In this document: positions 7,780 through 43,453 of the stretch, piece after piece
How positions within the stretch are numbered: the stretch's first letter is position 1
Layout of the letters: each line of letters starts with the position of its first letter
Virus record (IMG/VR): IMGVR_UViG_3300033066_001786
Span: 32,001-96,000 of that record
DNA: 64,000 nucleotides
Strand: one strand, 5' to 3'
Origin: a virus
Lineage: Duplodnaviria; Caudoviricetes
The notes under the pieces: generated by a model
Database searches by the model: none
What the model was told of the DNA's origin: nothing
What the model saw: only the letters and a program-made list of their open reading frames with translations
Translations under genes and position numbers: made by a program

Positions 7780-8443
7780 GTGTAAGTTCTGTAAGAAAAC
7801 TTTTTCAACTGAGAGGACTCTTTCGGTTCATAAGTGCGTAAAGAAACAGCGATATTTAGACAAAGACACAGTTGGCAGCAAGTTAGGGTTTAGGGTATAC
7901 CAACGTTTTTATGAATTGTCAACTGTAACTAAGAACCCTAAATCTTTCCTTGATTTTATAGATAGCAAATACTACCTCTCTTTTATAAAATTTGGGCGAC
8001 ACTTAGTTGATTTAAATCCAGTTGATACAAATTCGTTTGTTGATTATGTTATTATGGAAGGTGTAAGATTAGACGACTGGTGTAAAGATAAGGTGTATTA
8101 CGCATTCCTTAAAAAGTTCATTGAGAATGAATCAGTTGATAGGGCACTTGAGCGTACAATATTAGAAATGGAAAACTGGTGTAATATAAATAACACACAG
8201 CTTGTAGATTTCTTCTCAGATATAGGCACAATAGAAGCTACTTTTTTAATAAGAAGTGGAAAAATTAGTCCATGGGTGTTATATATATCGAATACTTCTT
8301 CGAATTTATTAAACCAGATGACAACTGAACAAGGTAATATGCTAAAAGAAGTAATAGACCCATTATTCTGGGCTGACATATTTTCTAAAAAAACCAACGA
8401 TGTGCAATTTGCTAAACAAGTATTGGAAGCGGCAAAATTATGA
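7748..8443 (+). CDS. Protein with N-terminal zinc finger
   Basis: CKFCKKTF...LSVHKC. Confidence 0.7.
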   Translation: MMMKLKISQNECKFCKKTFSTERTLSVHKCVKKQRYLDKDTVGSKLGFRVYQRFYELSTVTKNPKSFLDFIDSKYYLSFIKFGRHLVDLNPVDTNSFVDYVIMEGVRLDDWCKDKVYYAFLKKFIENESVDRALERTILEMENWCNINNTQLVDFFSDIGTIEATFLIRSGKISPWVLYISNTSSNLLNQMTTEQGNMLKEVIDPLFWADIFSKKTNDVQFAKQVLEAAKL

Positions 8444-9033
8444 TATATCAAGTATACGATACTGACGTAGACATCGATATATTACATCGAGATAAGGCAT
8501 TGGAATTATTTCCAAGTGCTGTCCCATCGATGATACTAAAAGACGATAAATGCACAAAACATAATTCCGGTGTTTATTTCCAAGATATGTACGTTGACCC
8601 ATATACTAATATAAGTACGATAGACTATAAAGATGCTGAGAATTTTGGATTTTTTAAAATTGATTTCTTAACAAACACTTTCTACGAAGGCGTTAAAGAT
8701 GAAAAACATCTTGTAAAATTAATAAATGAAGAACCAGATTGGGATTTATTAATGTACGAAGAGGTTGTTAGCAACCTTTTTCAGATTAGTAATTATTACA
8801 ACTTAATAGTTCAGAAGAAGCCAAAATCAGTTGAAGAATTGGCAATGTTTATTGCATTATTACGCCCTGGAAAAGCACAGTATAAGAATTTAACCTGGGA
8901 AGAAATATCTAAAGTTATATGGGTTAAAGATAACAACGAAAAATATCATTTTAAGAAAAGCCACAGTATAGCTTATGCAACAGTTATTGTGGTTCAATTA
9001 AATTTGTTAAAAGATCTTACTTCTGCTTCTTAA
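8440..9033 (+). CDS. DnaE (Pol III alpha)-like catalytic fragment, C-terminal half of palm plus fingers
   Basis: DTDVDID, KHNSGVY, GFFKIDFL, LFQI, FIALLRPG, FKKSHSIAYA match the DnaE motifs in order. Confidence 0.85.
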   Translation: MIYQVYDTDVDIDILHRDKALELFPSAVPSMILKDDKCTKHNSGVYFQDMYVDPYTNISTIDYKDAENFGFFKIDFLTNTFYEGVKDEKHLVKLINEEPDWDLLMYEEVVSNLFQISNYYNLIVQKKPKSVEELAMFIALLRPGKAQYKNLTWEEISKVIWVKDNNEKYHFKKSHSIAYATVIVVQLNLLKDLTSAS

Positions 9034-9376
9034 CTAAGGATATGTGCCGTCTTTTTACTCTTCGCTGTAGTATATCGTTTAAAGAAGTGCAAGGACCGAC
9101 TATATCTTCTATATCCTTCCTTGGTATATTTTTAATACAATATCTAAATTTACGCATTTCTTCTCCAACGAAAATAGATATTGGTAATAAACGATTAGAT
9201 TCGTTCCACCAGTTATCGCCGTGTTTTAAAAATTCTTCTTTGTGTGAGGCTTTTACAGTTGCAAAATCGTAAAAACTTAACATTTCGTCATCTGAATTTA
9301 AAATTATACCTACTAGCTCTTCTTCTAGGTATTTAACTATGCTTAAAAATGGAAATGCGCTTAAAATATCACTCAT
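9017..9376 (-). CDS. Hypothetical late protein, apparently leaderless
   Basis: 119-aa ORF; GATAAATA lies 5 nt before the ATG. Confidence 0.75.
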   Translation of the reverse strand: MSDILSAFPFLSIVKYLEEELVGIILNSDDEMLSFYDFATVKASHKEEFLKHGDNWWNESNRLLPISIFVGEEMRKFRYCIKNIPRKDIEDIVGPCTSLNDILQRRVKRRHISLVKKQK

Positions 9377-9381
9377 ACCTT

Positions 9382-9389
9382 TATTTATC
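9382..9389 (-). promoter_or_regulatory. Late promoter motif GATAAATA
   Basis: tatttatc on the + strand, intergenic. Confidence 0.7.
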
Positions 9390-9412
9390 TTTTTAAAAAC
9401 CGATAAGCCAAT

Positions 9413-9441
9413 TTGCGGAATAAGTTATAATGTTGTATACT
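9413..9441 (+). promoter_or_regulatory. Sigma70-like promoter TTGCGG-N17-TATACT for primase
   Basis: Spacing and position. Confidence 0.5.
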
Positions 9442-9464
9442 GTGAAAAATAAGAATAATAGAAT

Positions 9465-10481
9465 GTGATAATAGACGACCTTAAAAATCATATAACTTCT
9501 CGTGTACCGGGTCTTAAAGATTCTAAGCGATGGAAAAAAGCAAATTGCCCTGTTTGTAGTTTGCGAGGGGAATCTATTGACAAAAGAAGAAGGTTCGGTG
9601 TTATTTTTCAAGATGATAAAGTAGGTCTCCATTGTTTCAATTGTAAGTTCAAAGCCAGATATACCAACGGAGAGCACATATCTAAAGATATGTGCTGGTT
9701 CTTATCCGCAGTAGGTGTTGATTTCCATGAAATAGAAAGATTGAAATTTAATTCAAATCATCAACTATATAAGAATGGTTCTGTTTTAATTAAAAGAGAT
9801 AAAAAAAATATAGCCGATGCATGGGGAGAAATTTTATTACCTGAAGGTGCTAATACTTTAGAAAATTTAGCCATATCTGATTGTCAGGATGCTAAATTTA
9901 TAGAAGTGTGTGCTTATGTGATAAATAGAAAGCTCACCTGCTTTGATAAATTAATGTGGACACCGTCCTCGGAACATAACTTAGATCGTAAATTAATGAT
10001 CCCATGTTATTATAAAGATAAGACGTGCGGATACATTGCAAGGTCTTTAACTACAACCACTAAAAACATACCTAAATATTTTAAATCTGTGCCTGATAAT
10101 TTTGTATTTAATTTAGATGCACAACAAGGTAGAAAATATTGTATTTTAAGTGAAGGTGCCCTAGATGCATTAGTAACCGAAGGCATAAGTTGCCTGGGAA
10201 ATAATATAAATCAAGATCAAGCAGACTTAATAAATTCTATGGGAGTTAGTATTATTGTTTGCCCTGACAGGGAAGAATCCGGACAAGGGTTAGTTGACAT
10301 TGCCTTAAAAAACGACTGGGCAGTAAGTTTTCCAAAGTGGGAGAACAATATAAAAGATGCTGCCGAAGCAAATGCAAAATACGGTAAACTGTATACGATA
10401 AAGAGTATACTAGACGGTGCAGAGAATAATAAATTAAAAATAAATGTATTGAGAAAATTGGAGAAGAATAGGTGGAAATAA
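9465..10481 (+). CDS. DnaG/gp61-type DNA primase
   Basis: Zn ribbon CPVC...HCFNC, GYIARS, PKY, TOPRIM EGALDAL and PDRE, KDA. Confidence 0.88.
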   Translation: MIIDDLKNHITSRVPGLKDSKRWKKANCPVCSLRGESIDKRRRFGVIFQDDKVGLHCFNCKFKARYTNGEHISKDMCWFLSAVGVDFHEIERLKFNSNHQLYKNGSVLIKRDKKNIADAWGEILLPEGANTLENLAISDCQDAKFIEVCAYVINRKLTCFDKLMWTPSSEHNLDRKLMIPCYYKDKTCGYIARSLTTTTKNIPKYFKSVPDNFVFNLDAQQGRKYCILSEGALDALVTEGISCLGNNINQDQADLINSMGVSIIVCPDREESGQGLVDIALKNDWAVSFPKWENNIKDAAEANAKYGKLYTIKSILDGAENNKLKINVLRKLEKNRWK

Positions 10482-11857
10482 AGAAATATACAAAAGAAGT
10501 GGAAGATTTATTTATACAATTTTTTATAACAGATCCTGAGATATTCGTAAGGTGTATAGGTATATTAGATAAAGATCATTTCCAAGACCCAACAAATAAA
10601 AAAACCATAGAGTTCATGAAAGAGCATTGCAAGACATACTCTAGGTTACCAACACACGAACAGATGTTTGCCATTACGGGCAAAACAGTAGAAAAAATAC
10701 AAGAGTACGACCCCTCTTACTCTGATTGGTGTTTATTGGAATTTGAAGAATTTTCACGTTACCGTCAGATGGAAAAAGTAATATATAAAGCACCGGATAT
10801 GATTGCAGAAGGAAGGTACGGCGAAGTAGAGAAGCAAATAAAGGATGCAGTGTCAATAGGTCTTGTTAAGGACTTAGGCACGGACTATTTTAGCGACCCG
10901 ATTGCCAGGTTAACAGCTATCCGCGATAATAAGTCGATGATATCCACTGGCTGGAAAACAGTTGATAAAATACTGTATGGCGGGCTTAATAGGGGAGAGC
11001 TAACTATATTTTGTGCGCAATCGGGGCACGGAAAGAGCATTTATTTGCAGAATCTAGCTGTTAACTATGCACAGCAGGGGCTGAATGTAGTTTACATTAC
11101 ACTGGAGCTTAGTGAAAACCTTTGTTCTATGCGTTTAGACGCTATGACTACTGGATATGCAACTACAGAAATTATGAGAAACATGGAAGATGTTGCCCTT
11201 AAGGTATCAAGCTTTAAGAAAAGACACGGTGGCACATTGCGCATAAAGCAGTTAAAGAATAACTGCACATCTAATGATATTAAAGCATATATCAAAGAAT
11301 ATGAAACACAAACTAAAGTTAAAGTCGATGTTATTATAGTTGATTATTTAGATTTGTGTATGCCGTCTGATATACGTATATCCCCTTCTGATTTGTTTGT
11401 TAAGGACAAGTATGTAAGTGAGAATTTAAGGGCATTAGCGATAGAGCTAAATGTCATCTTACTTACAGCGAGTCAATTAAACCGTTCTGCCGGCGAATCA
11501 ATCGAATTTGGCCAACATCACATAGCAGGTGGCAAGTCTAAGATAGATACAGCAGATAATGTAATAGCCATATTTACAACAGCAGCAATGAAAGAACAAG
11601 GCAGATATCAATTACAGTTTATTAAGACTCGTTCGAGTTCAGGTGTGGGTACGTTTTTAGATATGATATTTAATACTAAAACCCTAAGAGTTGAAGATAT
11701 GCCGGAAGGTGCACCTGGATCGGTAGCGATGCAAACTACAAATGTATTAGATACGTTAAAAAGAAACAATAATATGGTTTCTAAAACAGAAGAAAAGGAC
11801 AAAAGCCCATTAAAAGGTGCAATGGATTTGCAAAGCATACTACGTAATATTAAATAA
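10472..11857 (+). CDS. Replicative helicase (gp41/DnaB-like)
   Basis: ISTGW, AQSGHGKS, YITLEL, IVDYLDL, TASQLNR, KTRSS. Confidence 0.93.
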   Translation: MEIKKYTKEVEDLFIQFFITDPEIFVRCIGILDKDHFQDPTNKKTIEFMKEHCKTYSRLPTHEQMFAITGKTVEKIQEYDPSYSDWCLLEFEEFSRYRQMEKVIYKAPDMIAEGRYGEVEKQIKDAVSIGLVKDLGTDYFSDPIARLTAIRDNKSMISTGWKTVDKILYGGLNRGELTIFCAQSGHGKSIYLQNLAVNYAQQGLNVVYITLELSENLCSMRLDAMTTGYATTEIMRNMEDVALKVSSFKKRHGGTLRIKQLKNNCTSNDIKAYIKEYETQTKVKVDVIIVDYLDLCMPSDIRISPSDLFVKDKYVSENLRALAIELNVILLTASQLNRSAGESIEFGQHHIAGGKSKIDTADNVIAIFTTAAMKEQGRYQLQFIKTRSSSGVGTFLDMIFNTKTLRVEDMPEGAPGSVAMQTTNVLDTLKRNNNMVSKTEEKDKSPLKGAMDLQSILRNIK

Positions 11858-11863
11858 GTTTTT

Positions 11864-11871
11864 GATAAATA
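11864..11871 (+). promoter_or_regulatory. Late promoter motif GATAAATA, 4 nt before the ATG
   Basis: tttgataaatactagATG. Confidence 0.7.
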
Positions 11872-11875
11872 CTAG

Positions 11876-12484
11876 ATGCGACTACAAGACCTAATATGTG
11901 AATCTACAAATCAACCGTTAGTTATAGTTGATATACAGCCTGCTTATAGTAAATATATTGGCTTTAATATTCATCAGTTTTTTTCCTTTGTGGGCAACTA
12001 TAAGGGAAAAATTCTGTGGATGTACAATTCCGAAGAAGAAGGTTTTACCGAAGATAGTCAACATTCTATGGTTGAATGGCTATATGATAACAACCTTGAT
12101 ATACACGAACATAGTAATATTAAACTATTCTCTAAAGGGTATGGTAATTTTAGAAGTTGGATAGATTACGGTATAGACGACGATATAATAATTCAAGTTA
12201 TACGGGAATTAGTTGCCCAGAACAAAAACGATAGTAGAGAATTATTCGGCCGAGATGAAGACAAAATAGATAAATATTTCGCTGCATTAGGTATGGCAGA
12301 AGATGATATACAGATGGCAAAAGACGATGCTATTCATTTAGCTTATGTGTGTATTCCTACGTTAAAATCTTATAATAATTGTACTTTAGTTGGCGGCGGT
12401 AGAAATGAGTGCCTAGCAGAAATGGTTCTTTTGTTTGACGCACTAAGAATTAAATACAAACTTTTAAATCAATTCATATACTAA
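11876..12484 (+). CDS. Isochorismatase/nicotinamidase-like cysteine hydrolase
   Basis: LVIVDIQ (Asp), SKGYG (Lys), VGGGRNECL (Cys) triad pattern. Confidence 0.65.
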   Translation: MRLQDLICESTNQPLVIVDIQPAYSKYIGFNIHQFFSFVGNYKGKILWMYNSEEEGFTEDSQHSMVEWLYDNNLDIHEHSNIKLFSKGYGNFRSWIDYGIDDDIIIQVIRELVAQNKNDSRELFGRDEDKIDKYFAALGMAEDDIQMAKDDAIHLAYVCIPTLKSYNNCTLVGGGRNECLAEMVLLFDALRIKYKLLNQFIY

Positions 12485-12491
12485 GGCTATA

Positions 12492-12728
12492 ATGAAAGGC
12501 ACAATATTTGAAGAATTAAGTAAATATGTACCTACTAAATCGTTAAGCGATGCAGTTGAAGCTAAAGCCAACCACATTATTGTATCTGCTATTAATTTAA
12601 TAGAGTACATATATGAGAATTTCCCCGAAGAACAAGCACAGTTAATGGAAAAGCGTTTCTTTAGTAGTATTAAAGGAAAGGATCCTGCTAGATTTAAAAG
12701 GGCATCCAAATTAGATAAAGGTGAATAA
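12492..12728 (+). CDS. Hypothetical protein (late cluster)
   Basis: ORF in late operon. Confidence 0.65.
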   Translation: MKGTIFEELSKYVPTKSLSDAVEAKANHIIVSAINLIEYIYENFPEEQAQLMEKRFFSSIKGKDPARFKRASKLDKGE

Positions 12729-13049
12729 GTGGCTGAGATCTTAAACCCTAAAGTTAGAGAATTAATAAAAGGCTGGTTACTCTATTTAAAGACTAACAAC
12801 ATAGGCGAACCCGAAGATACCGATTTGAAGAAATATCTTTCGACTAAGGGATATGATGCAAAGTTATTGGATAATTTAATTGCTAAGTTACCCGAAAAGA
12901 AACCAGAAATTGGAAACGAACCTCAACCAGAAGAAAATAAAGAGGTGGAATTAAATCCTGTGCAGAAAAGTTTACTTGGCAAGTTAGATGGTTTTTTCAG
13001 AAGTCTTAAATTGGACGACTTAAAGGCTATCATGAAGGGGCTTCAATGA
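12729..13049 (+). CDS. Hypothetical protein (late cluster)
   Basis: GTG start after AAGGTG. Confidence 0.6.
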   Translation: MAEILNPKVRELIKGWLLYLKTNNIGEPEDTDLKKYLSTKGYDAKLLDNLIAKLPEKKPEIGNEPQPEENKEVELNPVQKSLLGKLDGFFRSLKLDDLKAIMKGLQ

Positions 13050-14488
13050 AAGAACATTTATTATTAATAGAACACTTTGAAGATTTAAATCGTATAGATC
13101 TTATTATAAACGAATCTTTTTTAGTAGAATATAATTCTCACACTACTTTAAATATTGCAGAAATAGAAGAGATATTCAAAGCCGCTGCCAAGTATGTTGA
13201 AAACGGTGCAGTGCAAGATGTTATTGCGGGCACTAAAGCACAATCTAAAAAAGTATACGATTCTATTAAAAATAAAATATCTCAACATAAAACAAATAAG
13301 CAAGACAAAGCTTTTTTAGTTGACTTAAAGAGAATATCTCCGGATTTAAAAAAGAAAATCGTGCAAGATGGACTGAGCGGAAATTTACCAACCATAGTGA
13401 CTAAGCTTGAAAATTTAGTAACTGCCGATGTCACACAAGCACCTATGGTTTATTCTCTTTTAAAGAGTGTAGATGCCGCATTAGAAGACGGCAACGTTGA
13501 TTATGCAAAAGATGCGCTTGTGCAAATGGCCAAAGATTACCTGGGAGAATCTGTAGTATTAAAAGAAGGGCCTGCAAGCTTGTTCCATACTTTAAAAAAG
13601 AATGTAAGGCTCAATCAAAAAAAGGCATCCTACGAACAAATTTTAAAATATTGGGAAAAAAGCGGAAGCCCAAGAGATAGTAATTCGATTATAAGTATGC
13701 TCGAAGAGTTGTTAGGATTAAGCAAAAACGAAATTGCAACGATATTTCAACGTGCAGGAAAAGTAGAAAGAAACGCCGATGCTAGATATTCTAATGTAGT
13801 AAATCGAATTAAAGATTCAGGAATTCAAAAACAAGCATACGATCTTGCAGATAAGATATTAAAAGACAAAGAGTCGGTTTTTTCTGAATCCTTAAATGAA
13901 ATGAAAATAGATAATGCAGATATTAGAAAACTATTTATTGAACTCGAACCTAACTCAACTGAATCTAAAGAACAGCTAGCAAAAGATAAAGAAAAAGCAC
14001 ATGTTGTTATGGGTAATTATGTTAAGAAGTGGAAAATTGCTTTTGATAAAATACAAGAAAAGAATCAAAAAATGCAAATGATAAAAGAAATAGTTAACTT
14101 CTTAGCAGATAGGCACGGCACTGCCGAGTGGCAAAACTATAGTAAATTTGTACAGAATTTAATAAAGCAAGAACAAACAGTAGGCGACAAAAAGGGATAC
14201 GATGCATTAAAAACTAGCCTGGGGTTAATTAATAAGATTAAGGATCCCGACGAAAGAAATAAACAGAAATCAAGGGTTATGTCTAAGATGAACTCTTTGC
14301 GGAAGTCTGCAAATTCCCAAGATGTACAATATAATGATTTTTTAAATGCTGCAATCGCATCTATTGCTGCTGGAAAATTAATGGAGTCTAAATTAGTAGT
14401 ACCTGGATCCGGTTTAGGACTAAAAGAGTTTTTTACATTATTAGTAGAATCAAGCAATAATATAAATTTAGGAAGATTTAAGAAATGA
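13046..14488 (+). CDS. Probable internal head protein
   Basis: Helical, K/E-rich; many (I/L)-x-E sites (IINES, VLKEG, SLNEM, LMES). Confidence 0.55.
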   Translation: MKEHLLLIEHFEDLNRIDLIINESFLVEYNSHTTLNIAEIEEIFKAAAKYVENGAVQDVIAGTKAQSKKVYDSIKNKISQHKTNKQDKAFLVDLKRISPDLKKKIVQDGLSGNLPTIVTKLENLVTADVTQAPMVYSLLKSVDAALEDGNVDYAKDALVQMAKDYLGESVVLKEGPASLFHTLKKNVRLNQKKASYEQILKYWEKSGSPRDSNSIISMLEELLGLSKNEIATIFQRAGKVERNADARYSNVVNRIKDSGIQKQAYDLADKILKDKESVFSESLNEMKIDNADIRKLFIELEPNSTESKEQLAKDKEKAHVVMGNYVKKWKIAFDKIQEKNQKMQMIKEIVNFLADRHGTAEWQNYSKFVQNLIKQEQTVGDKKGYDALKTSLGLINKIKDPDERNKQKSRVMSKMNSLRKSANSQDVQYNDFLNAAIASIAAGKLMESKLVVPGSGLGLKEFFTLLVESSNNINLGRFKK

Positions 14489-15357
14489 AAATGTTCGAAT
14501 CATTATTAGCAGAGTTTGAGAAAAGTTTAAAAGGCGATATTGTGAAAAGTAACCTACAAAAAGACCTTCCTAAGCCAATTAAAGAATACACAGGTTCTTT
14601 TGTAGGTCTTTATAGTAGAGCAATTAATCTTGCTGTAAGAAAAATAGAAACTGGGTTAGAAGAATACGAACGTATGTATGATGTTTCCGAGGAAGCTCTA
14701 CTAAACGATGAAGAATTTCAGCGCGATGTAGTTGACTTGACTTTAGAAGAAATTAACAAATCGTTTAGTAGCAACGATTGGTTTAATTATGACGATTTTA
14801 AAGAAGAAGTAATAGCCAAAGTTAAACAGGATCTTGGGATTATAGTCGAAGATCTAGCCCAGATGCCTAATAATGCATTAACGTCTTGGGTAGTAAATAA
14901 CATAGTAAAGGAAATTAAAACATACCATAACCCAAGTAACAGTTTAGTAGGTTTATTAAAATCTGACAAATTTAAAAATGATGTATTTTACCCATGGATA
15001 GAAGAAGCATTAAAAAAGCCACATCGGAGTAATCCAGCTTTTTGTAACGAAGTTATGGGAGAAGTACAGAAAAAACTTGGGTTAACAGAGGGATACGGTC
15101 GCCCTTCTAATATATACGGCAATTTTTTCAAAGACATTATTCATTTGCCTGCAGTTGCAAAAGTAGTTAAAGATCATGCAACGTCAAACGGGCATGCCTT
15201 TTTAGTTAGAACTAAAGACGGTAATGCATACGAGATAACAGTGACGCCTGCTGCATATGCTAAATATTTTGCCGATGCAAGAAAAGAAGAACAATATAAG
15301 AAAAGAAAAGAAGAAGAAAAACAAAAAGGTACTTTTTTTGGAAAAAATGATAAATAA
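14485..15357 (+). CDS. Probable internal head protein
   Basis: MKMFESLLAE N-terminus; IKE, IVE and LTE sites between modules. Confidence 0.55.
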   Translation: MKMFESLLAEFEKSLKGDIVKSNLQKDLPKPIKEYTGSFVGLYSRAINLAVRKIETGLEEYERMYDVSEEALLNDEEFQRDVVDLTLEEINKSFSSNDWFNYDDFKEEVIAKVKQDLGIIVEDLAQMPNNALTSWVVNNIVKEIKTYHNPSNSLVGLLKSDKFKNDVFYPWIEEALKKPHRSNPAFCNEVMGEVQKKLGLTEGYGRPSNIYGNFFKDIIHLPAVAKVVKDHATSNGHAFLVRTKDGNAYEITVTPAAYAKYFADARKEEQYKKRKEEEKQKGTFFGKNDK

Positions 15358-15379
15358 ATATGTAATCGGAAAAACCGAT
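15349..15379 (+). promoter_or_regulatory. Late promoter GATAAATA (15349-15356) followed by a small 5' hairpin ATCGG-AAAAA-CCGAT
   Basis: Read directly; strong AGGAG SD follows. Confidence 0.65.
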
Positions 15380-15402
15380 ATAAAGTTTAGGAGAATATAA
15401 AA

Positions 15403-15750
15403 ATGGCATCAGCTACAAAAGCAACTTGGGCAGTCCCACAGGATTTGGCCGGTTCTATCGATCACTTGGTTATTACTGTTACTGGCGGCACCGGCGACAT
15501 GACTACTTCTGCAGATTTAGGCGCAGTATTGCGTATTATTCAACAACGTGCTACTACTGTTTTAGCTTATTCACCGTCTGCTTTAATTTTGTATGTAGGC
15601 TTAGAAAATGCAGGCAACCATGCTTGGTTGGTAACTGCAGACGCTGGCGGCGCACACACCGATTCTGGTTCTTTAGCTAACCAAATCAAAGGCGCAATGA
15701 CTGGTTCTTCTGCTGTTACAGTTGTACGCGGTAACTACAAAGTAGCATAA
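15403..15750 (+). CDS. Small Ala/Gly/Thr-rich virion structural protein
   Basis: Own late promoter, strong SD and terminator; composition. Confidence 0.6.
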   Translation: MASATKATWAVPQDLAGSIDHLVITVTGGTGDMTTSADLGAVLRIIQQRATTVLAYSPSALILYVGLENAGNHAWLVTADAGGAHTDSGSLANQIKGAMTGSSAVTVVRGNYKVA

Positions 15751-15761
15751 TAACTACTTTA

Positions 15762-28106: not shown

Positions 28107-28802
28107 ATGTCATTTAATAAAACAAAAACTGACCCAGAGTTAGGAAGAAAAGTTCACGCACATTTAAGATCTTTGGGATTAGAAACCCCAGTAATAGACA
28201 GCAAATTAAATGTTGATGCAAAAGATAAAATCGAAAGCATCGAGAAACATATGACTAAAATTTTAGAAACTATGGGTATGGATTTATCCGACGATTCGTT
28301 AATCGAAACACCTAAGCGTGTTGCAAAGATGATGGTGTTAGAACAAGGGTGGGGATTAAAACCTGAGAATTTCCCGAAATGTACTGTAGTTGATAATAAA
28401 ATGAACTACGACGAGATGGTAGTCGAGAAGTGCTCAGTAAACTCAATCTGCGAACATCATTGGATTTTCTTCGGTTCCATACATAGTCCGGAATTGGGCG
28501 CGTGGATAGCGTATATCCCTAAGAAAAAAGTAGTAGGATTAAGTAAGCTAGGTAGGGTCATGGAGTATTTCTCTGCAAGGCCGCAAATACAAGAAAGACT
28601 TACTCAGCAAGTATTAGAAACTTTAAAATTTATTTTAGAAACAGAAGATGTTGCCGTTGTTATAAAAGCCCAGCATTTTTGTGTTCTTACTCGCGGAGTT
28701 GAAGACGCACAAGCAAACACTATTACAAGTGCGTTATCGGGCTCGTTTAAAACAGATTTACAAACTAGGTCAGAGTTTATGGCCCACATACGGAAAGGCT
28801 AA
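28107..28802 (+). CDS. folE: GTP cyclohydrolase I
   Basis: ETPKRVAKM, SICEHH, GLSKLGR, RPQIQERLT, HFCVLTRGV. Confidence 0.95.
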   Translation: MSFNKTKTDPELGRKVHAHLRSLGLETPVIDSKLNVDAKDKIESIEKHMTKILETMGMDLSDDSLIETPKRVAKMMVLEQGWGLKPENFPKCTVVDNKMNYDEMVVEKCSVNSICEHHWIFFGSIHSPELGAWIAYIPKKKVVGLSKLGRVMEYFSARPQIQERLTQQVLETLKFILETEDVAVVIKAQHFCVLTRGVEDAQANTITSALSGSFKTDLQTRSEFMAHIRKG

Positions 28803-35280: not shown

Positions 35281-35281
35281 T

Positions 35282-35545
35282 ATGCTGCCAAAAACTCCAA
35301 TTCTAGTAATAGGGGAATCTTCCTTTTATCACAGTAGGACTTATTATTTAAAAACGAACGGGACTTATTCTTTGCAAGAAATGTACCAATATACCGGTAG
35401 CAAAGTAATAGGTATTTACCCACTTAAAGAAGATTTCTTAGAAGATGCTGATGCATTAAGCAATATAATGGATTATGTAGACGAAACCGGTTGCTTCCCA
35501 AAAGGAACAACTTTATACGAAAAGCAAACAGGCGAAAAAACATGA
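35282..35545 (+). CDS. Hypothetical protein
   Basis: Coupled ORF. Confidence 0.6.
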   Translation: MLPKTPILVIGESSFYHSRTYYLKTNGTYSLQEMYQYTGSKVIGIYPLKEDFLEDADALSNIMDYVDETGCFPKGTTLYEKQTGEKT

Positions 35546-36321
35546 AGAATATTATAGTATTAGATACAGAAACAACAAATAAAGATAAAAATTTAGCAGA
35601 AGTAATAGAATTAGGAGTAGTTTACTACGACGACAACGAAATAAAAAGTTTTAATAAATTGTATAAACCAAAAGACATAATTTCACCAGAAGTTTCGGCA
35701 GTTACAAACATAACTAATAAAATGGTCGAAGATTGCGAATATTTTGAAAACTGCGTTGATGACTTAGTTCCTTTTTTACAGTTAGTAGATGCTACTAAAG
35801 GTGCAATTGTTGCACATAATTCTGCGTATGATTCTGTAGTGCTGTCCCATTACCAATTAGGTTACGATTGCAATGCACCGTGGGTATGTACAATGAGGTT
35901 TGCAAAAACACTCTTTATCAACGACGAAACGGTAACACAGTATAATTTACCATATTTGCGATATAGATTTGACTTAGACATCCCTGAAAACCTAGAACAC
36001 CATAGAGCTTCATCTGATGCATATATTACTTTGAAACTTTTTGAATATTTAGTTTCTGTTGCAATCGAAAGAAAAGTGTTAACTGCTGACGATACACTTT
36101 TAGATCAGATCGTTTCTCTTACAAGCAAACCACTGTATATGCCACGTATGCCATTTGGAAAACACGCCAACCAAACATGGGATATTATACCGCCTAGTTA
36201 TATAAAATGGGCACTAAATACTCTTGATTGTTTAAAAGACAATGACCCGTTGTACGATGTTGATTTGTCGCACACAATAGAAGTAGTAGCAACAAAATTA
36301 ATAGAGGAAGGGAAGCTTTGA
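35542..36321 (+). CDS. DEDDh 3'-5' exonuclease (ExoX/DnaQ-like); likely start 35542
   Basis: LDTETT, AHNSAYD, HRASSDA, C-terminal MPFGKH module. Confidence 0.88.
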   Translation: MKNIIVLDTETTNKDKNLAEVIELGVVYYDDNEIKSFNKLYKPKDIISPEVSAVTNITNKMVEDCEYFENCVDDLVPFLQLVDATKGAIVAHNSAYDSVVLSHYQLGYDCNAPWVCTMRFAKTLFINDETVTQYNLPYLRYRFDLDIPENLEHHRASSDAYITLKLFEYLVSVAIERKVLTADDTLLDQIVSLTSKPLYMPRMPFGKHANQTWDIIPPSYIKWALNTLDCLKDNDPLYDVDLSHTIEVVATKLIEEGKL

Positions 36322-36482
36322 AAATAAAGTATAGGATGAGATATGCGTATTTTCCAATCCGTATTTCAGGGGAATGGGTTTGGCAAATGCACTATTATGT
36401 TAGTGAAGACGGCGAGAAAATAAATCATGCACAATTCGATTTGGATGTCATACATGGAAAAGCTGAACTTATACAAGATTAA
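36318..36482 (+). CDS. Small 54-aa ORF not in the track
   Basis: TTG start overlapping the upstream TGA; MKIKYRMRYAYFPIRISGEWVWQMHYY...; fills the gap. Confidence 0.5.
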   Translation: MKIKYRMRYAYFPIRISGEWVWQMHYYVSEDGEKINHAQFDLDVIHGKAELIQD

Positions 36483-36514
36483 CCAATATGCTTTTTTATT
36501 AGAAGCACACTATG

Positions 36515-36787
36515 TTATTTTTGTTTATCAATTATGCCTGCTCTTACTTTAACATCTTGTAAGGAACGATAACCCGGTGATCCCTCTTCATATGATTTTG
36601 GAACCACTGTAAACTTATCTTTTTGTGGTGCGGGCTTTAAAAAAACAGAGGTCGAATTTGGATCTAATTTTTTGTATCTTTTTCTTTCGTTGTTAATCAT
36701 ATTGCTCAATTCTGGATTATACACATCTTCTGGTCCAAAATCGCCAAATATGTTATCGTCTTTGTATATGAATTCAAATAGTCGCAT
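36515..36787 (-). CDS. Late, apparently leaderless probable virion protein (MRLFEF)
   Basis: GATAAATA at 36793-36800 on the - strand, 5 nt before the ATG. Confidence 0.7.
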   Translation of the reverse strand: MRLFEFIYKDDNIFGDFGPEDVYNPELSNMINNERKRYKKLDPNSTSVFLKPAPQKDKFTVVPKSYEEGSPGYRSLQDVKVRAGIIDKQK

Positions 36788-36805
36788 ATTATTATTTATC
36801 AGATG

Positions 36806-36834
36806 TTGACAATATTGTTAAAATGCTATATTAT
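36806..36834 (+). promoter_or_regulatory. Sigma70-like promoter TTGACA-N17-TATTAT for clpP, back-to-back with the late promoter
   Basis: Read directly. Confidence 0.65.
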
Positions 36835-36868
36835 TAACATACTTTTGTAACTTCCCAAGGAGAAGTAT

Positions 36869-37462
36869 ATGACGTTAGTACCTATGGTAGTAGAAAACAC
36901 CGCAAGAGGAGAAAGGTCGTATGACTTGTACTCCAGAATGCTTAAAGAACGGATTATTTTCCTTAACGGCGAAGTAAACGAATCAATGGCAAATATCATA
37001 GTTGCCCAGCTTTTGTTTTTAGAATCCGAATCTGCAGAAAAAGATATTAGCATGTATATTAATTCGCCCGGCGGATCAGTAATGGACGGACTTGCAATAT
37101 ATAATGCAATGGAGTATATTTCTTGCGATGTTGCTACTTTTGTTACTGGACAAGCAATGTCTATGGGTTCTTTCCTTGCATCGTCGGGTGCAGCCGGTAA
37201 GCGGTATGTTATGTCCGAAAGTACAACAATGATTCACTCTGTTTCTTCTGGAAGTCGAGGCACAGTACATGACCAAATTATTCAACTTGAGGAAGCAAAA
37301 AGACTCAATACAAGATTAATGGAATTGTATGTCCGACATAATTCGAAAGGTAAAACCTTCGACGAACTTAACAGTGCAACTATGCGAGATAATTTCTTAA
37401 CTGCACAAGGTGCTGTTGATTTTGGTTTAGCAGATACAGTAGTATATAAAAGAAATAAATAA
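36869..37462 (+). CDS. clpP: ClpP protease
   Basis: [27 protein letters not shown] (Ser), MIH (His), RD (Asp). Confidence 0.96.
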
Positions 37463-37481
37463 AAATGAGGACACACAGCTC

Positions 37482-37730
37482 ATGGATGAGCTTTATTTAA
37501 TTAAGAACAATAATGGTCTTTTTTCCACAGGTGGTTATCACCCTACCTTTTCTAAAAAAGCAAAAGTGTATAATATTGGATCTTTGCGTCAACACCTAGC
37601 AAATATTATATCTACTGGCAAATGGCCATATGACGATTGTAATATAGTCGCATACCGCGAAAGCAGGGAAGATAATGCAGAGTTTGAAAAGTACAAGAAA
37701 AAACTTATGATGAAGAAGTTAAAACAATAG
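37482..37730 (+). CDS. Hypothetical protein
   Basis: GAGG SD; GLFSTGG..P.F motif. Confidence 0.6.
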   Translation: MDELYLIKNNNGLFSTGGYHPTFSKKAKVYNIGSLRQHLANIISTGKWPYDDCNIVAYRESREDNAEFEKYKKKLMMKKLKQ

Positions 37731-38198
37731 ATGGATGTATTAGGCGAAAAATGGTGTAGACGATTCATGAATATTGCACTTGAATCTGCTACTTGGTCAA
37801 AAGACCCTCACACTAAAACAGGCGCAGCAATAGTAACACTTGAAGGCGACCCCGTGTCTTGGGGTTTTAACGGTATACCTAAGAAAGTAGAAGACCGCGA
37901 AGAAAGATACCAACGACCTGAAAAATATAAATGGATACAGCATGCTGAACGTAATGCAATAGATTTATCAAAGTATGACTTGAAAAATTGTGTTATTTTT
38001 TGTACCCACTTCCCATGTCACGAATGTGCTAAATCTATCATACAAAAAGGTATAGTTGCAGTAGTTGTTGATTCTAAACATTTTCAAAATTCCAATTCCG
38101 GTTTTTCAGAAAGATGGGCAGAATCATTAGAAATATCAAAACAAATGCTTGAAGAAGCAAATATAAAAATAATTAAAATAGGGACAAACGATGAGTGA
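37731..38198 (+). CDS. dCMP deaminase
   Basis: SKDP.TK.GA, GFNG, HAERNAI, PCHEC. Confidence 0.93.
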   Translation: MDVLGEKWCRRFMNIALESATWSKDPHTKTGAAIVTLEGDPVSWGFNGIPKKVEDREERYQRPEKYKWIQHAERNAIDLSKYDLKNCVIFCTHFPCHECAKSIIQKGIVAVVVDSKHFQNSNSGFSERWAESLEISKQMLEEANIKIIKIGTNDE

Positions 38199-38595
38199 TT
38201 TAAATAATAAATATAATGATTTTGTAAACGGTTTACTTAGTAATGAAAGTGTAGATTTTGATTCTTTTATTTCGCGTTTAGTAGAATTAAAAAACGCAAA
38301 ATGTCAAATTAATACATTATTAACAGGTGCGGTCGGTATGTCAGCCGAATCTGGCGAATTTATGGAAATTGTTAAAAAAGTAATATTCCAAGGTAAGCCG
38401 TGGGACGAAGCAAACCAAATACATTTGAAAAAAGAATTATCAGATATTATGTTTTATGTAATGTCGTCTTGCATCGGTTTAGGTATTTCGTTAGACGACG
38501 TAATACAAACAAACATTGATAAACTTGAAGCAAGATACCCGGGTGGTAAATTTGACGCACATTATAGCGAAAATAGAAAAAAAGGAGATCTGTAA
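38191..38595 (+). CDS. mazG: MazG-like NTP pyrophosphatase
   Basis: AESGEFMEIVKK, KELSDIMFY, NIDKLEARYP. Confidence 0.9.
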   Translation: MSDLNNKYNDFVNGLLSNESVDFDSFISRLVELKNAKCQINTLLTGAVGMSAESGEFMEIVKKVIFQGKPWDEANQIHLKKELSDIMFYVMSSCIGLGISLDDVIQTNIDKLEARYPGGKFDAHYSENRKKGDL

Positions 38596-39056
38596 TGGCT
38601 TCAATTAATACTACAACAGGTACAACGCCAACAACACATCTGGGGCAGTTGCCAAATCCAAATTACGGTTTTTATGGCGGGTCCTACGTGAATGCAGAGG
38701 CTAATAAAATTAAAAAATACATTGCCACTTCTAAAACTAAAATTAAATTCATTGAAACAGTCGAAGGTAGCATTTTTAAAATATCTGATTTTAATATGGC
38801 ATATAGCAAATTACCAGATACTACAGAAGGTATGGTTTTAAAGCTTAAAGGTGAAATAAACTCATCTATACATTTAATACTACAACACGAAGACGATTCC
38901 TTACATCTAGTTGATTTAACTTCTAATTTTTACCAAACCCAAATACATAAAGCCGAAGTAACAGTTGAGTACGTTAATATTTCACTCTATTCGCCATCTG
39001 TTATTGCATATAACCCAGACGATGTTAAATATGTAATTTTAAATTCTATTTATTGA
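38595..39056 (+). CDS. Hypothetical protein
   Basis: AGGAG SD, coupled. Confidence 0.6.
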   Translation: MASINTTTGTTPTTHLGQLPNPNYGFYGGSYVNAEANKIKKYIATSKTKIKFIETVEGSIFKISDFNMAYSKLPDTTEGMVLKLKGEINSSIHLILQHEDDSLHLVDLTSNFYQTQIHKAEVTVEYVNISLYSPSVIAYNPDDVKYVILNSIY

Positions 39057-39058
39057 TG

Positions 39059-39087
39059 TTGCATATTGTACAGAATGATAGTATAGT
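39059..39087 (+). promoter_or_regulatory. Sigma70-like promoter TTGCAT-N17-TATAGT
   Basis: Intergenic, canonical spacing. Confidence 0.6.
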
Positions 39088-39116
39088 CTACATATTAATA
39101 TAGTGCGGGGTTTTTC

Positions 39117-39341
39117 ATGGCCGAAGACAGTACATTCGTAGTTAACATTAGAGATGTTGATCATTTCTATAAGGTTACTAAATTGTTAACCAGTAACTTT
39201 GGTCACGACAAATGGAAAGGTTCTCGGAGAATAGTAAAAAAACTTCAAAAGGGCGGTCCTGCTATATTTACAGTGACAGTGATAGGCGAAGTCGATGTTA
39301 ATAAATGCAAAAATGCCCAACTTATGGCGACATTATTATGA
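39117..39341 (+). CDS. Small hypothetical protein, paralog of the next ORF
   Basis: VNIRDVDHF vs LNIRSKDHY. Confidence 0.6.
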   Translation: MAEDSTFVVNIRDVDHFYKVTKLLTSNFGHDKWKGSRRIVKKLQKGGPAIFTVTVIGEVDVNKCKNAQLMATLL

Positions 39342-39610
39342 AGTTAGAAAATAGCCCTAAATATGGGAATTATTATCGTCTTACTTTGAATATTCGAAGT
39401 AAAGATCATTATGTTAGAATTATTAAATACTTAGAAAAAACTTACGGTTGTGTTTCTAACCCGTATTTGTTTGCAACGGAGACGAGAGTTTTATCTGAAT
39501 TAAACGGAACAGATAAACCCGTAGTTGCAGTTTTTAGATTGTATGAGAAATTCATAAATGATAGAAATATCTCTATTAATAATCTGTCGGTTTATTTGAG
39601 TTTATTATGA
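39338..39610 (+). CDS. Small hypothetical protein (likely start 39338)
   Basis: ATGA overlap; paralog of 39117. Confidence 0.6.
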   Translation: MKLENSPKYGNYYRLTLNIRSKDHYVRIIKYLEKTYGCVSNPYLFATETRVLSELNGTDKPVVAVFRLYEKFINDRNISINNLSVYLSLL

Positions 39611-39939
39611 CTACAGAAGTAAACGTTGAAAAGGAAAAACTTTATACTTGTCTAAATAGGCACGGTATATCTTGCCCTTCGTTGTCTCCCCCCGGCAATC
39701 AGTTTGTTTTTACAAAAGTGTACGATGTTAGTTTATATACTTTCTTAGGGTCTGGTTTAAAATATTACGTGCACCTTAACGGCGTGGACGAGTCAGTTTT
39801 TGAGAATTCAATATCTAGTATTAGAAAAAAATATAAATCAATTGGCAGTATTTTCTACGATAGTAGACGCATTGTATTTTTCGACGAGAAAGAGTCAATG
39901 ATGATTAAGTTTAAATACGGCGAATTCTTAGAGATTTAA
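39607..39939 (+). CDS. Hypothetical protein
   Basis: FFDEKESMMIKFKY motif. Confidence 0.6.
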   Translation: MTTEVNVEKEKLYTCLNRHGISCPSLSPPGNQFVFTKVYDVSLYTFLGSGLKYYVHLNGVDESVFENSISSIRKKYKSIGSIFYDSRRIVFFDEKESMMIKFKYGEFLEI

Positions 39940-39940
39940 A

Positions 39941-40357
39941 ATGCCAACTTCTGACAAAATTAAGTTATTTCGTGAAATATTTAGTAACAGTAATTTTGTA
40001 TCCTTTCTCTTCGTTATTTGCACATTGGCGCAAGTTTGGTTTCTCAATACGTTTGCACTGAATATGTTAATGGTAGATTTAATATACATTACGGGTTCAT
40101 TACAATTATTTAATATAGTATTGTATACAGTGTGTAACATAGGTAACCCGTTAAAGCCTTTTAAGAATCACATAATTGATGTAGTTTTTCTAGTAGCAAG
40201 AACATCTATGTTTTGGCTTTTTTGTATACCTGCAGCATTAGTTATTATGGTTTGCGAATCTTATATTTTCGACGAAGCAATAAAAAATAACTATATTATA
40301 CCAACTAGAAAAAATAAAATCAAGCATATGTATTCTAAATTGGCAGGTGACATGTGA
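39941..40357 (+). CDS. Membrane protein, paralog of 40354
   Basis: Hydrophobic segments; PTRKNK motif. Confidence 0.65.
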   Translation: MPTSDKIKLFREIFSNSNFVSFLFVICTLAQVWFLNTFALNMLMVDLIYITGSLQLFNIVLYTVCNIGNPLKPFKNHIIDVVFLVARTSMFWLFCIPAALVIMVCESYIFDEAIKNNYIIPTRKNKIKHMYSKLAGDM

Positions 40358-40737
40358 ACAAATTTTTAACTATGAGTACATTTTTGGCTCGGTTAGTTCT
40401 AGTGTTTTTTATTATGGCTAACTTCCTACCTTATTTTATATTAAATGGTGATTTGTTTTTCTATTTCCTATTGTTTAATATTTTTTCTTATTTAATAATT
40501 ATGTTTATTGCTTTAGCCGATAGAAGTCAAAGTAGCGATGCATTGGAATTTATTTCATTAGTATCTTTTTGTCTAGCTGTTAACATGTACTTTGTTCCGA
40601 TTTATTATATTTGTGAAAAGATAATTTATAAGGAAAAAGGAATACTTGAAAAGTATTACAAACGAGGTTATTTCTTACCAACTAGAAAAAACAAGAAAAA
40701 CCAAATGATGCACATTTTAAAAGGCAACCTAGGATGA
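40354..40737 (+). CDS. Membrane protein, paralog of 39941
   Basis: Hydrophobic segments; PTRKNK motif. Confidence 0.65.
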   Translation: MNKFLTMSTFLARLVLVFFIMANFLPYFILNGDLFFYFLLFNIFSYLIIMFIALADRSQSSDALEFISLVSFCLAVNMYFVPIYYICEKIIYKEKGILEKYYKRGYFLPTRKNKKNQMMHILKGNLG

Positions 40738-41036
40738 AACATAATTTGTTTTTAAATCATAACATCGAAAACGACGATGTTACAATGGTTGTTGTTGAGC
40801 TGCCTTGCAAAGGTGCCGAGTACACTTATTTTGTAAGGGAATTAAAAAACAATACTAGTGGATCATTTTATATATATCGAACTACTACATACGCTATATC
40901 CGATGTAGAAAAATTATATGTAGGTTTTGAAAATGAAAAAGATGCAATGTTCTTACGTTTAAGGTATGATGTTAAAGTTATAAACAGCTGGAACAAAGAT
41001 ATTCGTTTTTCCTATTTTAAATATGTTGACAACTGA
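40734..41036 (+). CDS. Hypothetical protein
   Basis: GFENEKDAMFLRLRY motif. Confidence 0.6.
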   Translation: MKHNLFLNHNIENDDVTMVVVELPCKGAEYTYFVRELKNNTSGSFYIYRTTTYAISDVEKLYVGFENEKDAMFLRLRYDVKVINSWNKDIRFSYFKYVDN

Positions 41037-41053
41037 GCAAAATAATGTATAAT
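41026..41053 (+). promoter_or_regulatory. Consensus sigma70 promoter TTGACA-N16-TATAAT
   Basis: Read directly. Confidence 0.75.
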
Positions 41054-41077
41054 AGCACAATAAATTAGGAAATAGAA

Positions 41078-41581
41078 ATGATTACGCATAGAATTGGGAA
41101 TCTACTTGAAACAGTAACTGAAGGCCATATATTGCACGGATGTAATGCGCAGGGTGTAATGGGTTCGGGTTTTGCAAAACAAGTAAAACTTAAATACCCT
41201 CATGTGTTCGAAACATATAAAATTGCACATTCTAAGAAATTTAGTAATACAGGTTTAGTTCTTGGTAATGTTATTGGCGCACAAGCAACAGTTACACCAA
41301 CAAATAACCTATATGTGTGGAATATGATTACACAGGAATTCTACGGTTATAACGGTAAAAGACAAGTAGATTATAATGCTGTTCGATTGTGTATGAAGAA
41401 ATTTAACAAAGTTATGCTTGATGGTTTTTATGATGCATACAGTAAAGAAGTTCATTTTCCATTGATAGGTTGTGGATTAGGAGGCGGATCTTGGAAAGTT
41501 ATATCTGCCATAATAGACGAAGAAATTACTTGTACAGAAGACAAGTACCTCTGGACCTTAACTAGCGACATTAGGAGCTAA
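41078..41581 (+). CDS. Macro-domain (ADP-ribose-processing) protein
   Basis: GNLL, HGCNAQGVMGSGFAKQV, FPLIGCGLGGGSW. Confidence 0.9.
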   Translation: MITHRIGNLLETVTEGHILHGCNAQGVMGSGFAKQVKLKYPHVFETYKIAHSKKFSNTGLVLGNVIGAQATVTPTNNLYVWNMITQEFYGYNGKRQVDYNAVRLCMKKFNKVMLDGFYDAYSKEVHFPLIGCGLGGGSWKVISAIIDEEITCTEDKYLWTLTSDIRS

Positions 41582-41583
41582 AT

Positions 41584-42039
41584 ATGAGCAATCAAGCAGA
41601 ATCAGTAGTTGTAACAGTTACTAAACGTAAGAAACTGTGGGGGCGAGTTAAAGCAATAGTGGCCCAAGTTAAATTCGAAAAACCTTATTTGTTGCTATGG
41701 CGATACAATATGTTTTTAAACCTGTGCTTTTTTGCGCAGGGCTTGATTGGGTTATTAACCTTAGGCGCATATATGCCGTGGTGGACAGGAAAAGCATCGA
41801 AATTGGTTTCTATTGCTAAATCCGACATTACACAGTACGAGAAAGCAAAAACAGAATCAAAACAAGAAGTTGAAAAAGAAACACAAAAACAAGAAGAAGT
41901 TAAGGATGTTTCTAAATCGGAAATGATTAGGCGAATGGTTGAAGAAATGGCAACTAAACGCGAATATGATATGTTCGGTAATGTGATATCTATTAACGGC
42001 GAGCTTGTTAAAAAGGAGACTGACAAAAAGGATGTTTGA
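41584..42039 (+). CDS. Hypothetical membrane-associated protein
   Basis: AGGAG SD; hydrophobic GLIGLLTLG segment. Confidence 0.6.
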   Translation: MSNQAESVVVTVTKRKKLWGRVKAIVAQVKFEKPYLLLWRYNMFLNLCFFAQGLIGLLTLGAYMPWWTGKASKLVSIAKSDITQYEKAKTESKQEVEKETQKQEEVKDVSKSEMIRRMVEEMATKREYDMFGNVISINGELVKKETDKKDV

Positions 42040-42316
42040 ATTAAGTGATATGAAGCTCCTCACGGACGAGGAGTTATTTAACAGAATAATGAAATTAAGA
42101 AGATATTTATTCCAGTCCCAAAATCATCCAGAAATGATGTATAGTATTGAGATAACACTTGCTGTGCTCGAAGAGGAAAAAGAATATAGGGATTTAAGAA
42201 AAATAAATACAGAAACAGAAAAAAGAAATAAGAAAAATAAAAACACAGATATGTATCCTATTAACTTCGGTAAAGTTAATAGTTTGGAAGACGACAATGA
42301 GAAACCAAAAGAATAG
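42032..42316 (+). CDS. Hypothetical protein (likely start 42032)
   Basis: L.DEEL..RI..L helical hairpin pattern. Confidence 0.6.
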   Translation: MFELSDMKLLTDEELFNRIMKLRRYLFQSQNHPEMMYSIEITLAVLEEEKEYRDLRKINTETEKRNKKNKNTDMYPINFGKVNSLEDDNEKPKE

Positions 42317-42968
42317 TAGAACAGACATGACGCTTAAACATACGTTTAAGGGATGCCGATTTCACCCACATAAAATGAATATTGTAGAATGGAATCTACG
42401 TGTGTACTTAGTAGGAAGACCACCTAAAGACAACGAAGGCGACGAATTTAAACAATCCGTTTCTTTTGCATTCCATAAACTTCATGGTTGGCTCGAATAC
42501 TTTATTAATGATGTAATCGTAGTTGATTTTAATAATAAAGACCAATATTTCTCTGCATTAGATTTGCAAGTAGAAAACCAAATAATTCTAACTCCTACTA
42601 TTGCATCTGACGATGTCCTTGCACAATTATTCCATGCTAAAATGCGTTCTATTGTAAACGGTGATATATCGGTCGAGGCAGTAGAACTAGAATCGTCAGA
42701 TTGTAATGTCGTTTACACTTATACTAATTTAGACGGAAAATACGATCTGCCCTCGCAGGAAGAATTCGTCGGCAAAAAATCGCTTTTTGATAAACCTTGG
42801 TGGGAAAGGAACGATTGCGATACGTATGATTTTGAATTGCCTAAAGGCGAAAATAAAAAAGAACTAATTAAGGATTTAGATACATCTAAATTCTTCGACG
42901 AGTTAAAATCGACGTTATTTGGCGAAGAACCCGAAGCAGATATTATAGAGATCAAATGGAAAAAATAA
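42297..42968 (+). CDS. Hypothetical protein, possible degenerate QueD-like T-fold
   Basis: Secondary-structure/motif pattern; overlaps the DnaE N-fragment gene. Confidence 0.5.
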   Translation: MRNQKNSRTDMTLKHTFKGCRFHPHKMNIVEWNLRVYLVGRPPKDNEGDEFKQSVSFAFHKLHGWLEYFINDVIVVDFNNKDQYFSALDLQVENQIILTPTIASDDVLAQLFHAKMRSIVNGDISVEAVELESSDCNVVYTYTNLDGKYDLPSQEEFVGKKSLFDKPWWERNDCDTYDFELPKGENKKELIKDLDTSKFFDELKSTLFGEEPEADIIEIKWKK

Positions 42969-43453
42969 ACGGTATTGTTCCTACTGTAGATGCAAATGAA
43001 TATATAGAATTGCTACTTAACGGTGCTAATGTTAAGTCTTTATGTTTGTCTGATAATATTGCCTTAGAAGAATATAACAAAATTGCAGATTATTTTGAAA
43101 CTAAAAAATTACCACAAATTGACGATTTAAGTGCTAATATTTTAGAAAAAGCATCAACATGGAATATACCTGATTATTTTTTAAATTTAGACGTTGAAGA
43201 ATACATAACATCATTATGTTTAACAGACGAAGAGAAGAATAGGATAAATAAAGAACTGGTGCTATATAAAGAGAAGAATTTGTTTAGGTTGTTGCAATGT
43301 TTAATTTATATAGTCGACACGTTTAGAAAGAATAATGTAGTATGGGGTGTCGGGAGAGGATCAAGTGTATCGTCGTATTGTTTATTTTTAATAGGTGTAC
43401 ATAAGATTGATTCCATAAAATATGGATTAGAAATTGAAGAATTTTTAAAATAG
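42956..43453 (+). CDS. DnaE (Pol III alpha)-like fragment, N-terminal half of palm
   Basis: RINKEL...WGVGRGSSVSSYCLFLIGVHKIDSIKYGLEIEEFL matches DnaE GPGRGSxxGSLVAYxLGITxxDPxxxxLLFERFL. Confidence 0.85.
   Translation: MEKINGIVPTVDANEYIELLLNGANVKSLCLSDNIALEEYNKIADYFETKKLPQIDDLSANILEKASTWNIPDYFLNLDVEEYITSLCLTDEEKNRINKELVLYKEKNLFRLLQCLIYIVDTFRKNNVVWGVGRGSSVSSYCLFLIGVHKIDSIKYGLEIEEFLK

Follow-up and report, generated by a model that had tools for sequence, protein, structure and literature searches.

Split minimal DNA polymerase III (Pol III) alpha subunits have been described computationally in the group 2.2 jumbo phages, which resemble RaK2, GAP32, and PA5oct (Iyer, Anantharaman, Krishnan, Burroughs, and Aravind 2021; PMC7824862). 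Members include GAP32 YP_006987428/YP_006987387, PA5oct gp288/gp220, and RaK2 ORF162, corresponding to PHROGs 11127 and 11778. The passages of that paper on the split place an N-terminal nucleoside triphosphate (NTP)-binding half and a C-terminal Mg- and template-binding half at distant loci, and suggest that the two cooperate in the synthesis of one strand or act in repair. Here, we analyze such a gene pair in a 64,000-nucleotide stretch of phage DNA (positions 32,001 to 96,000 of IMG/VR record IMGVR_UViG_3300033066_001786), which we refer to as the window. An initial annotation of the window overstated the novelty of the split itself, since the arrangement was explicitly described in 2021.

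The source phage contig is linear, 113 kb long, and 35% G+C, with an estimated completeness of about 32%, and it is contained in riverine and wastewater metagenomes. Its gene content is T4-like, comprising gp32, UvsX, UvsY, UvsW, a primase, a gp41-like helicase, a gp44-like clamp loader, and a family B DNA polymerase (PolB). Within the split family, the window pair is unremarkable. Gene order at both half loci is that of PA5oct, GAP32, and RaK2, and the window shares with these phages orthologous halves (40 to 50% identity) in synteny with the same neighbors, as well as a co-resident T4-type PolB, gp32, DnaB/gp41, and UvsW. In contrast to the listed group 2.2 members, the source is a new uncultured riverine phage, at most about 55% identical to the relatives listed. 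Neither a residue-level map nor an assay is mentioned in the passages of Iyer et al. (PMC7824862) that treat the system.

Anatomy of the two half genes

The N-half gene (positions 42956 to 43453, plus strand, 165 amino acids [aa]) and the C-half gene (8440 to 9033, plus strand, 197 aa) lie 34 kb apart, with the boundaries initially annotated, and are confirmed as encoding the N- and C-terminal halves of a minimal Pol III alpha (DnaE) core. The N-half scores above the cut-off of the Pfam family DNA_pol3_alpha (E = 1.9e-9) and also matches PHROG 11127; for the C-half, the matches are PHROG 11778 (E = 4.6e-71) and, weakly, DNA_pol3_finger. Both halves have Pol III alpha subunits as their best PDB sequence matches. 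A contig of another run, possibly the source of the window DNA, carries the N-half locus without a break, and a single contig from a second study spans the N gene with two substitutions.

Alignment with Escherichia coli DnaE places the split at about residue 393, where the halves meet almost to the residue, as the initial annotation had noticed. An N-terminus of about 70 aa without assignment precedes the N-terminal palm (E. coli residues ~277 to 393), which carries the GS nucleotide-binding motif R134-G135-S136 (R362/G363/S364), has E162 at the position of R390, and ends in F163-L164-K165 (F391-L392-N393). The C-half starts at about residue 393 and ends near 775. Its D9, D11, and D13 correspond to D401, D403, and D405, H41 to H511, K73 and D75 to K553 and D555, R142 and P143 to R639 and P640, and F171 to H175 to F756 to H760, with Y169, F171, K173, and H175 forming the nucleotide pocket that includes the steric gate. 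The family C catalytic triad, D401/D403/D555 (PMC3919608), was rightly said to be retained: its equivalents D9/D11/D75 are present in 100% of 119 homologs. The palm fold, D401/D403/D405/D555, and the GS motif are shared with the DnaE of E. coli, Thermus aquaticus, and Mycobacterium tuberculosis and with PolC, as are H511, K553, R639-P640, and Y754/F756/K758/H760.

Unlike bacterial DnaE, the phage core is about one third of the length, is divided between two chains, and has Glu for R390. Internal deletions in the C-half have reduced the helical thumb to a beta-hairpin bearing H41 and removed approximately residues 645 to 750, including the R709/R710 index finger, and the clamp-binding region, HhH, OB, and C-terminal domain (CTD) are also missing from this half. 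PHP, (HhH)2, the clamp-binding motif, and OB domains are found in neither open reading frame (ORF), which agrees with the losses initially described. An AlphaFold2 (AF2) model of the C-half (pLDDT 89.7, pTM 0.71) retrieved only family C polymerases as top structural matches (VIA Z 9.7 to 6.3; next 3.8).

The N-half stops 1 or 2 residues past the FL motif in most relatives with this motif scored, and the C-half begins 8 residues before DxD. Neither half has a Pfam intein match or intein-like ends, so the absence of inteins also holds. As in cyanobacterial intein-split DnaE and other two-gene phage DnaEs, two genes encode the polymerase; unlike the cyanobacterial pair, this one lacks intein halves and makes a minimal core rather than a full replicase. 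Larger two-gene phage DnaEs also turned up in our searches: P0282 is an example of the PHP-bearing type, and the locus L172:6001-12932 carries a two-gene DnaE unlike the minimal split, made up of a 601-aa PHP and palm protein and a 536-aa fingers and HhH protein, 3.5 kb apart. The window additionally encodes, as initially annotated, a complete PolB (59576 to 62497, plus strand, 973 aa), with its exonuclease and polymerase motifs all present and ExoI and motifs A, B, and C intact, which we presume to be the main replicase.

Co-occurrence, selection, and a natural fusion

Co-occurrence of the halves had been set beforehand as a test, and each of the seven near-complete IMG/VR genomes carries one copy of each half together with an intact PolB. 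Among GenBank phages, C-half matches occur in 96 records and N-half matches in 92, the genus tallies being nearly the same; a fused query found 187 places in 96 records. A profile of the N-half (E up to 1e-10) retrieved 976 clusters at 50% identity, which may include some full-length DnaEs. Neutral evolution is contradicted by the ratios of nonsynonymous to synonymous substitution rates (dN/dS), whose medians are 0.16 across 8 N-half pairs and 0.09 across 16 C-half pairs; the primase has 0.085 and the clamp loader 0.04. Both halves are under purifying selection. Their distances are correlated across 16 genomes (Mantel r = 0.46, p = 0.0003), which shows co-inheritance only and not co-evolution. 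In a 517-kb phage (L007:5791-10119), the halves are just 3.2 kb apart on one strand, in N-to-C order, and the neighbors of both half loci are interleaved. Elsewhere (L127:6001-6558), the C-half is interrupted into ORFs of 75 and 100 aa, possibly through a sequencing error.

A search for long N-half homologs uncovered a 376-aa protein in which the N-half is followed by the C-half, in DnaE order, across a linker of about 10 residues. The fusion reads under translation table 11 in three sequences, 89 to 97% identical, on eight ENA/Logan contigs from several samples, and represents one lineage (L168:10001-11131, L165:519-1649, and L169:4048-5178). Synonymous changes occur across the junction. The antisense gene of 119 aa found after the split C-half also lies downstream of the fusion, and the fusion contig carries homologs of gp32 and of the window gene at 7748. 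The AF2 model of the fusion has a pLDDT of 89.9 and a pTM of 0.88, versus a pTM of 0.71 for the C-half alone, and matches M. tuberculosis DnaE1 over 330 residues (Z 22.2, root mean square deviation 3.7 Å); the next match outside family C has a Z of 4.8. Both models thus predict a palm of the DnaE/PolC Pol-beta type. The natural fusion supports the halves forming one enzyme.

When longer DnaEs serve as the root, the tree places the fusion as sister to the 15 split pairs together (support 89/89, with a long-branch warning); this placement is of moderate strength and not decisive. Because of this sister position, an unsplit ancestor would be compatible with the tree. IMG/VR, the JGI metagenomes, and GenBank phages yielded no further fused members, and a search for C-half homologs of at least 369 aa, which missed the 376-aa fusion, returned two distant DnaE fragments only. 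Several apparent fusions were rejected. A joined T-fold and N-half protein (P0277) needs TGA as Trp, and an N-half joined to a homolog of the gene at 43708 (P0274) needs TAG as Gln, which makes both read-through gene calls; P0273 and P0278 to P0280 look like assembly chimeras. The single-chain fusion is newly found here, as the passages of Iyer et al. (PMC7824862) on the split are silent on one.

Conserved residues and the proposed role

Conservation was scored in 150 N-half representatives and 119 C-halves, a set less biased than our alignment A2, in which the invariance of HKIDSIKY was an artifact of the search seed. R134/G135/S136 is present in 100% of the N-halves, as are D9, D11, D13, H41, K73, D75, R142, P143, and H175 in the C-halves, and the pocket residues equivalent to Y754/F756/K758 are invariant or nearly so. 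We draw the roles of these residues from a 2026 cryo-electron microscopy preprint on E. coli Pol III, in which neither the R362A nor the K553A mutant is active, H760 serves as the steric gate against ribonucleoside triphosphates, and Y754 stacks on the incoming base (bioRxiv 10.64898/2026.06.29.735100). By homology, the conserved residues point to template-directed, primer-dependent synthesis specific for deoxynucleoside triphosphates (dNTPs).

We propose that the two gene products associate without a covalent link to form a single family C polymerase core of about 360 residues. The N-half would contribute the GS motif that binds the sugar and phosphates of the dNTP, and the C-half the three metal-binding aspartates, the residues contacting primer and template, and the histidine steric gate. 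Because the helical thumb, clamp-binding motif, HhH, OB, and PHP are missing, established DnaE anatomy suggests a distributive enzyme of low processivity without proofreading, which would add short dNTP tracts on a primed template. An active template-directed heterodimeric DNA polymerase of this kind is quite likely, with association, activity, and low processivity inferred. As an accessory of the T4-like replisome, the core might add a few deoxynucleotides to RNA primers made by the primase, or to other 3' ends, and then hand over to clamp-bound PolB. Bacillus subtilis DnaE, which extends primers and hands off to PolC (PMC3664799), offers an analogy, in that it is a second, non-main family C polymerase beside a primase and a helicase, as the phage core would be; unlike that core, however, it is full length, and the phage partner would be PolB rather than PolC. 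The location of the C-half in a cluster with primase, helicase, single-stranded DNA-binding protein (SSB), and UvsXYW genes counts for this primer-extension role, as does the near absence at both halves of the late-promoter-like motif that precedes structural genes. It is nevertheless the least secure part of the proposal, and we place it slightly below an even chance.

Several points weigh against the proposal. The same cluster also contains UvsX, UvsY, and UvsW, so the neighborhood does not tell priming apart from recombination or repair. T4-type PolB normally needs no help to extend RNA primers, which leaves the need for a hand-off unexplained. The canonical basic set contacting the dNTP is incomplete: the R390 position is Glu in 91% and Asp in 8% of N-halves, the break coincides with R396, and the loss of the index finger has taken R709/R710/K714/K715 with it. 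In E. coli, R390A alone carries a 27-fold cost. The score of the fusion model may owe part to its likeness to solved DnaE structures, and the alignment behind it had unpaired N and C rows. Finally, the initial annotation knew of no demonstrated function, and the literature searched contained no functional or experimental study of split minimal Pol III. Two new invariant lysines, K145 and K172, may rebuild the triphosphate pocket in place of the lost arginines.

The loss of R390/R396/R709/R710 and the distance between the genes could also be read as signs of a catalytically inactive scaffold or decoy, mimicking and sequestering parts of the host replisome, or of two fragments that act independently. 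We regard this as very improbable: the metal ligands and the GS motif are all invariant, the surfaces for host interaction (clamp motif, tau-binding CTD, and PHP) are exactly the missing parts, and a natural fusion exists.

The functional interpretation given initially survives in part. Strict co-occurrence, purifying selection, invariant catalytic residues, the intact PolB, and the fusion support a reading in which a minimal DnaE core made from two genes reassembles and is distinct from the bulk replicase, whereas nucleotide tagging and RNA primer synthesis are disfavored because the primer contact K553, the template contacts R639/P640, and the steric gate H760 are invariant. We consider it very unlikely that the pair forms a template-independent transferase, or one for ribonucleotides or modified nucleotides, that serves tagging or de novo priming and is possibly tied to a 7-deazaguanine pathway. 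The minimal Pol-beta-fold core and the altered triphosphate pocket (R390E, new lysines) would suit such an enzyme, as would the FolE and QueD genes of the window and a QueD/PTPS-like T-fold gene (42297 to 42968, plus strand) that overlaps the start of the N-half. However, H175, K73, and R142/P143 are fully conserved and an intact-looking primase is encoded beside the C-half. Moreover, the T-fold gene is present at just 16/80 N-half loci and missing between the corresponding neighbors in RaK2 and GAP32; its product, initially considered a flanking partner, is thus ruled out as an obligatory subunit.

An active heterodimer might instead serve recombination and repair, through short gap filling, extension of 3' ends in displacement loops with UvsX/Y/W, or low-fidelity, DnaE2-like lesion bypass. 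Its genes share one cluster with gp32, UvsX, UvsY, and UvsW, there is no proofreading domain, the core lacks the index finger, the element closing over the nascent pair, and repair was also among the roles proposed by Iyer et al. (PMC7824862). We consider this role possible but doubtful, as universal retention in a large phage group and a primase-like dN/dS suit a core rather than a conditional function, and the selectivity residues equivalent to Y754 and H760 are kept.

Neighborhoods of the two loci

Neighbors were counted at 81 C-half loci, which are often truncated, and 80 N-half loci. Upstream of the C-half, its cluster contains the gp32 SSB, UvsX, UvsY, and UvsW recombination genes (302 to 4835, plus strand), with a homing endonuclease of 586 aa (4835 to 6595) inserted between UvsW and the gene at 6645. 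A DnaG/TOPRIM-type primase (9465 to 10481, plus strand; 65/81 loci) and a DnaB/gp41-like helicase (10472 to 11857, plus strand; 50/81 loci) belong to the same cluster. EGxxD and PDxD are conserved in relatives of the primase, and the TOPRIM motif of the window copy is PDxE, with PDxD in 61 of 64 relatives. The GAP32 cluster also includes an epsilon-like gene, and the window encodes a stand-alone DEDD exonuclease (35491 to 36321; PHROG 192, DNA polymerase exonuclease subunit), which is a possible trans proofreader.

A conserved zinc-finger protein (7748 to 8443, plus strand; C-x2-C...H-x-C) is a candidate partner, with family members at 66/81 C-half loci. Its gene overlaps the C-half start, to which it is translationally coupled in the window; its N-terminus resembles a eukaryote-like C2H2/C2HC zinc finger, and sequence profiles gave no match to T4 gp59. 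The conserved helical protein encoded just before it (7327 to 7779, plus strand; 61/81 loci) had been taken for a clamp-loader subunit, which would have split the clamp loader over both loci. The RFC/gp44-like ATPase downstream of the N-half (45122 to 46042, plus strand; 56/80 loci) bears out one side of that claim. The 7327 protein is unconfirmed as the small subunit: it has no detectable similarity to any clamp-loader family, and a profile gave no signal against a single T4 gp62, PHROGs, or PDB sequences.

The convergent 119-aa gene after the C-half (9017 to 9376, minus strand) is found at 79/81 loci and also adjoins the fused gene. The family is highly conserved (dN/dS 0.08), has a WWxESNR motif, and has no match in PDB or Pfam. 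We take it for a probable late gene and not a subunit, because a GATAAATA-like late-promoter-like motif that accompanies structural genes also accompanies this family in 69/71 relatives. Late expression of the halves themselves was rejected, as the motif is proximal to them at just 1/76 and 1/61 loci for the two halves; the PA5oct annotation flags neither half as virion detected.

At the N-half locus, the gene at 42005 to 42316 (plus strand) belongs to a helical family of about 77 aa (E = 2e-8 to the family hidden Markov model) that lies upstream of the N-half at 78/80 loci and includes another candidate partner. Most members have at their C-terminus a conserved acidic-hydrophobic tail (DLDxLIxV) that the window copy lacks. 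This tail somewhat resembles the C-terminal clamp-binding tails of PolB and is a possible interaction peptide. Homologs of the gene at 43708 (76/80 loci) and GroES (75/80) are also frequent neighbors.

These conserved small neighbors at both loci, together with the clamp-loader ATPase near the N-half, would be compatible with a processive, strand-specific replicase, for instance of the lagging strand, in which the 7748, 42005-family, or 7327 proteins or a clamp replace the missing domains; Iyer et al. (PMC7824862) likewise raise synthesis of one strand. We nonetheless find it highly unlikely, as no clamp-binding motif is visible in either half and PolB is intact everywhere checked. HhH_6 and PHP genes are missing from all seven near-complete genomes, and no HhH_6 was found in the source contig, which is about 32% complete.

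The window further contains FolE (28107 to 28802) and QueD (57767 to 58375) genes and, by eye, a possible TGT/DpdA-like gene from 63251; a QueE-like radical SAM gene was seen by eye further along the phage contig. These are possibly a 7-deazaguanine DNA-modification set. The T-fold protein at 42297 is a second, apparently His-less QueD-like fold.

In its most specific form, our proposal would make the core an essential hand-off polymerase between the DnaG-type primase and PolB, a viral analog of eukaryotic Pol alpha built on a family C palm, whose triphosphate pocket has been rebuilt by K145/K172 in place of R390/R709/R710 and whose single-chain minimal ancestor persists in a sister phage lineage. 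This combination is speculative and we doubt that all of it holds, but if the hand-off is true, the core would rank with the smallest functional polymerases of family C. The fusion provides a single 376-aa protein for biochemistry and structural work, making two-chain reconstitution unneeded, and could show whether a family C palm lacking the thumb, index finger, and triphosphate arginines polymerizes. The split pair forms part of the core gene set of a very large group of phages, and the fusion could also help to show why a phage with PolB keeps a second polymerase.

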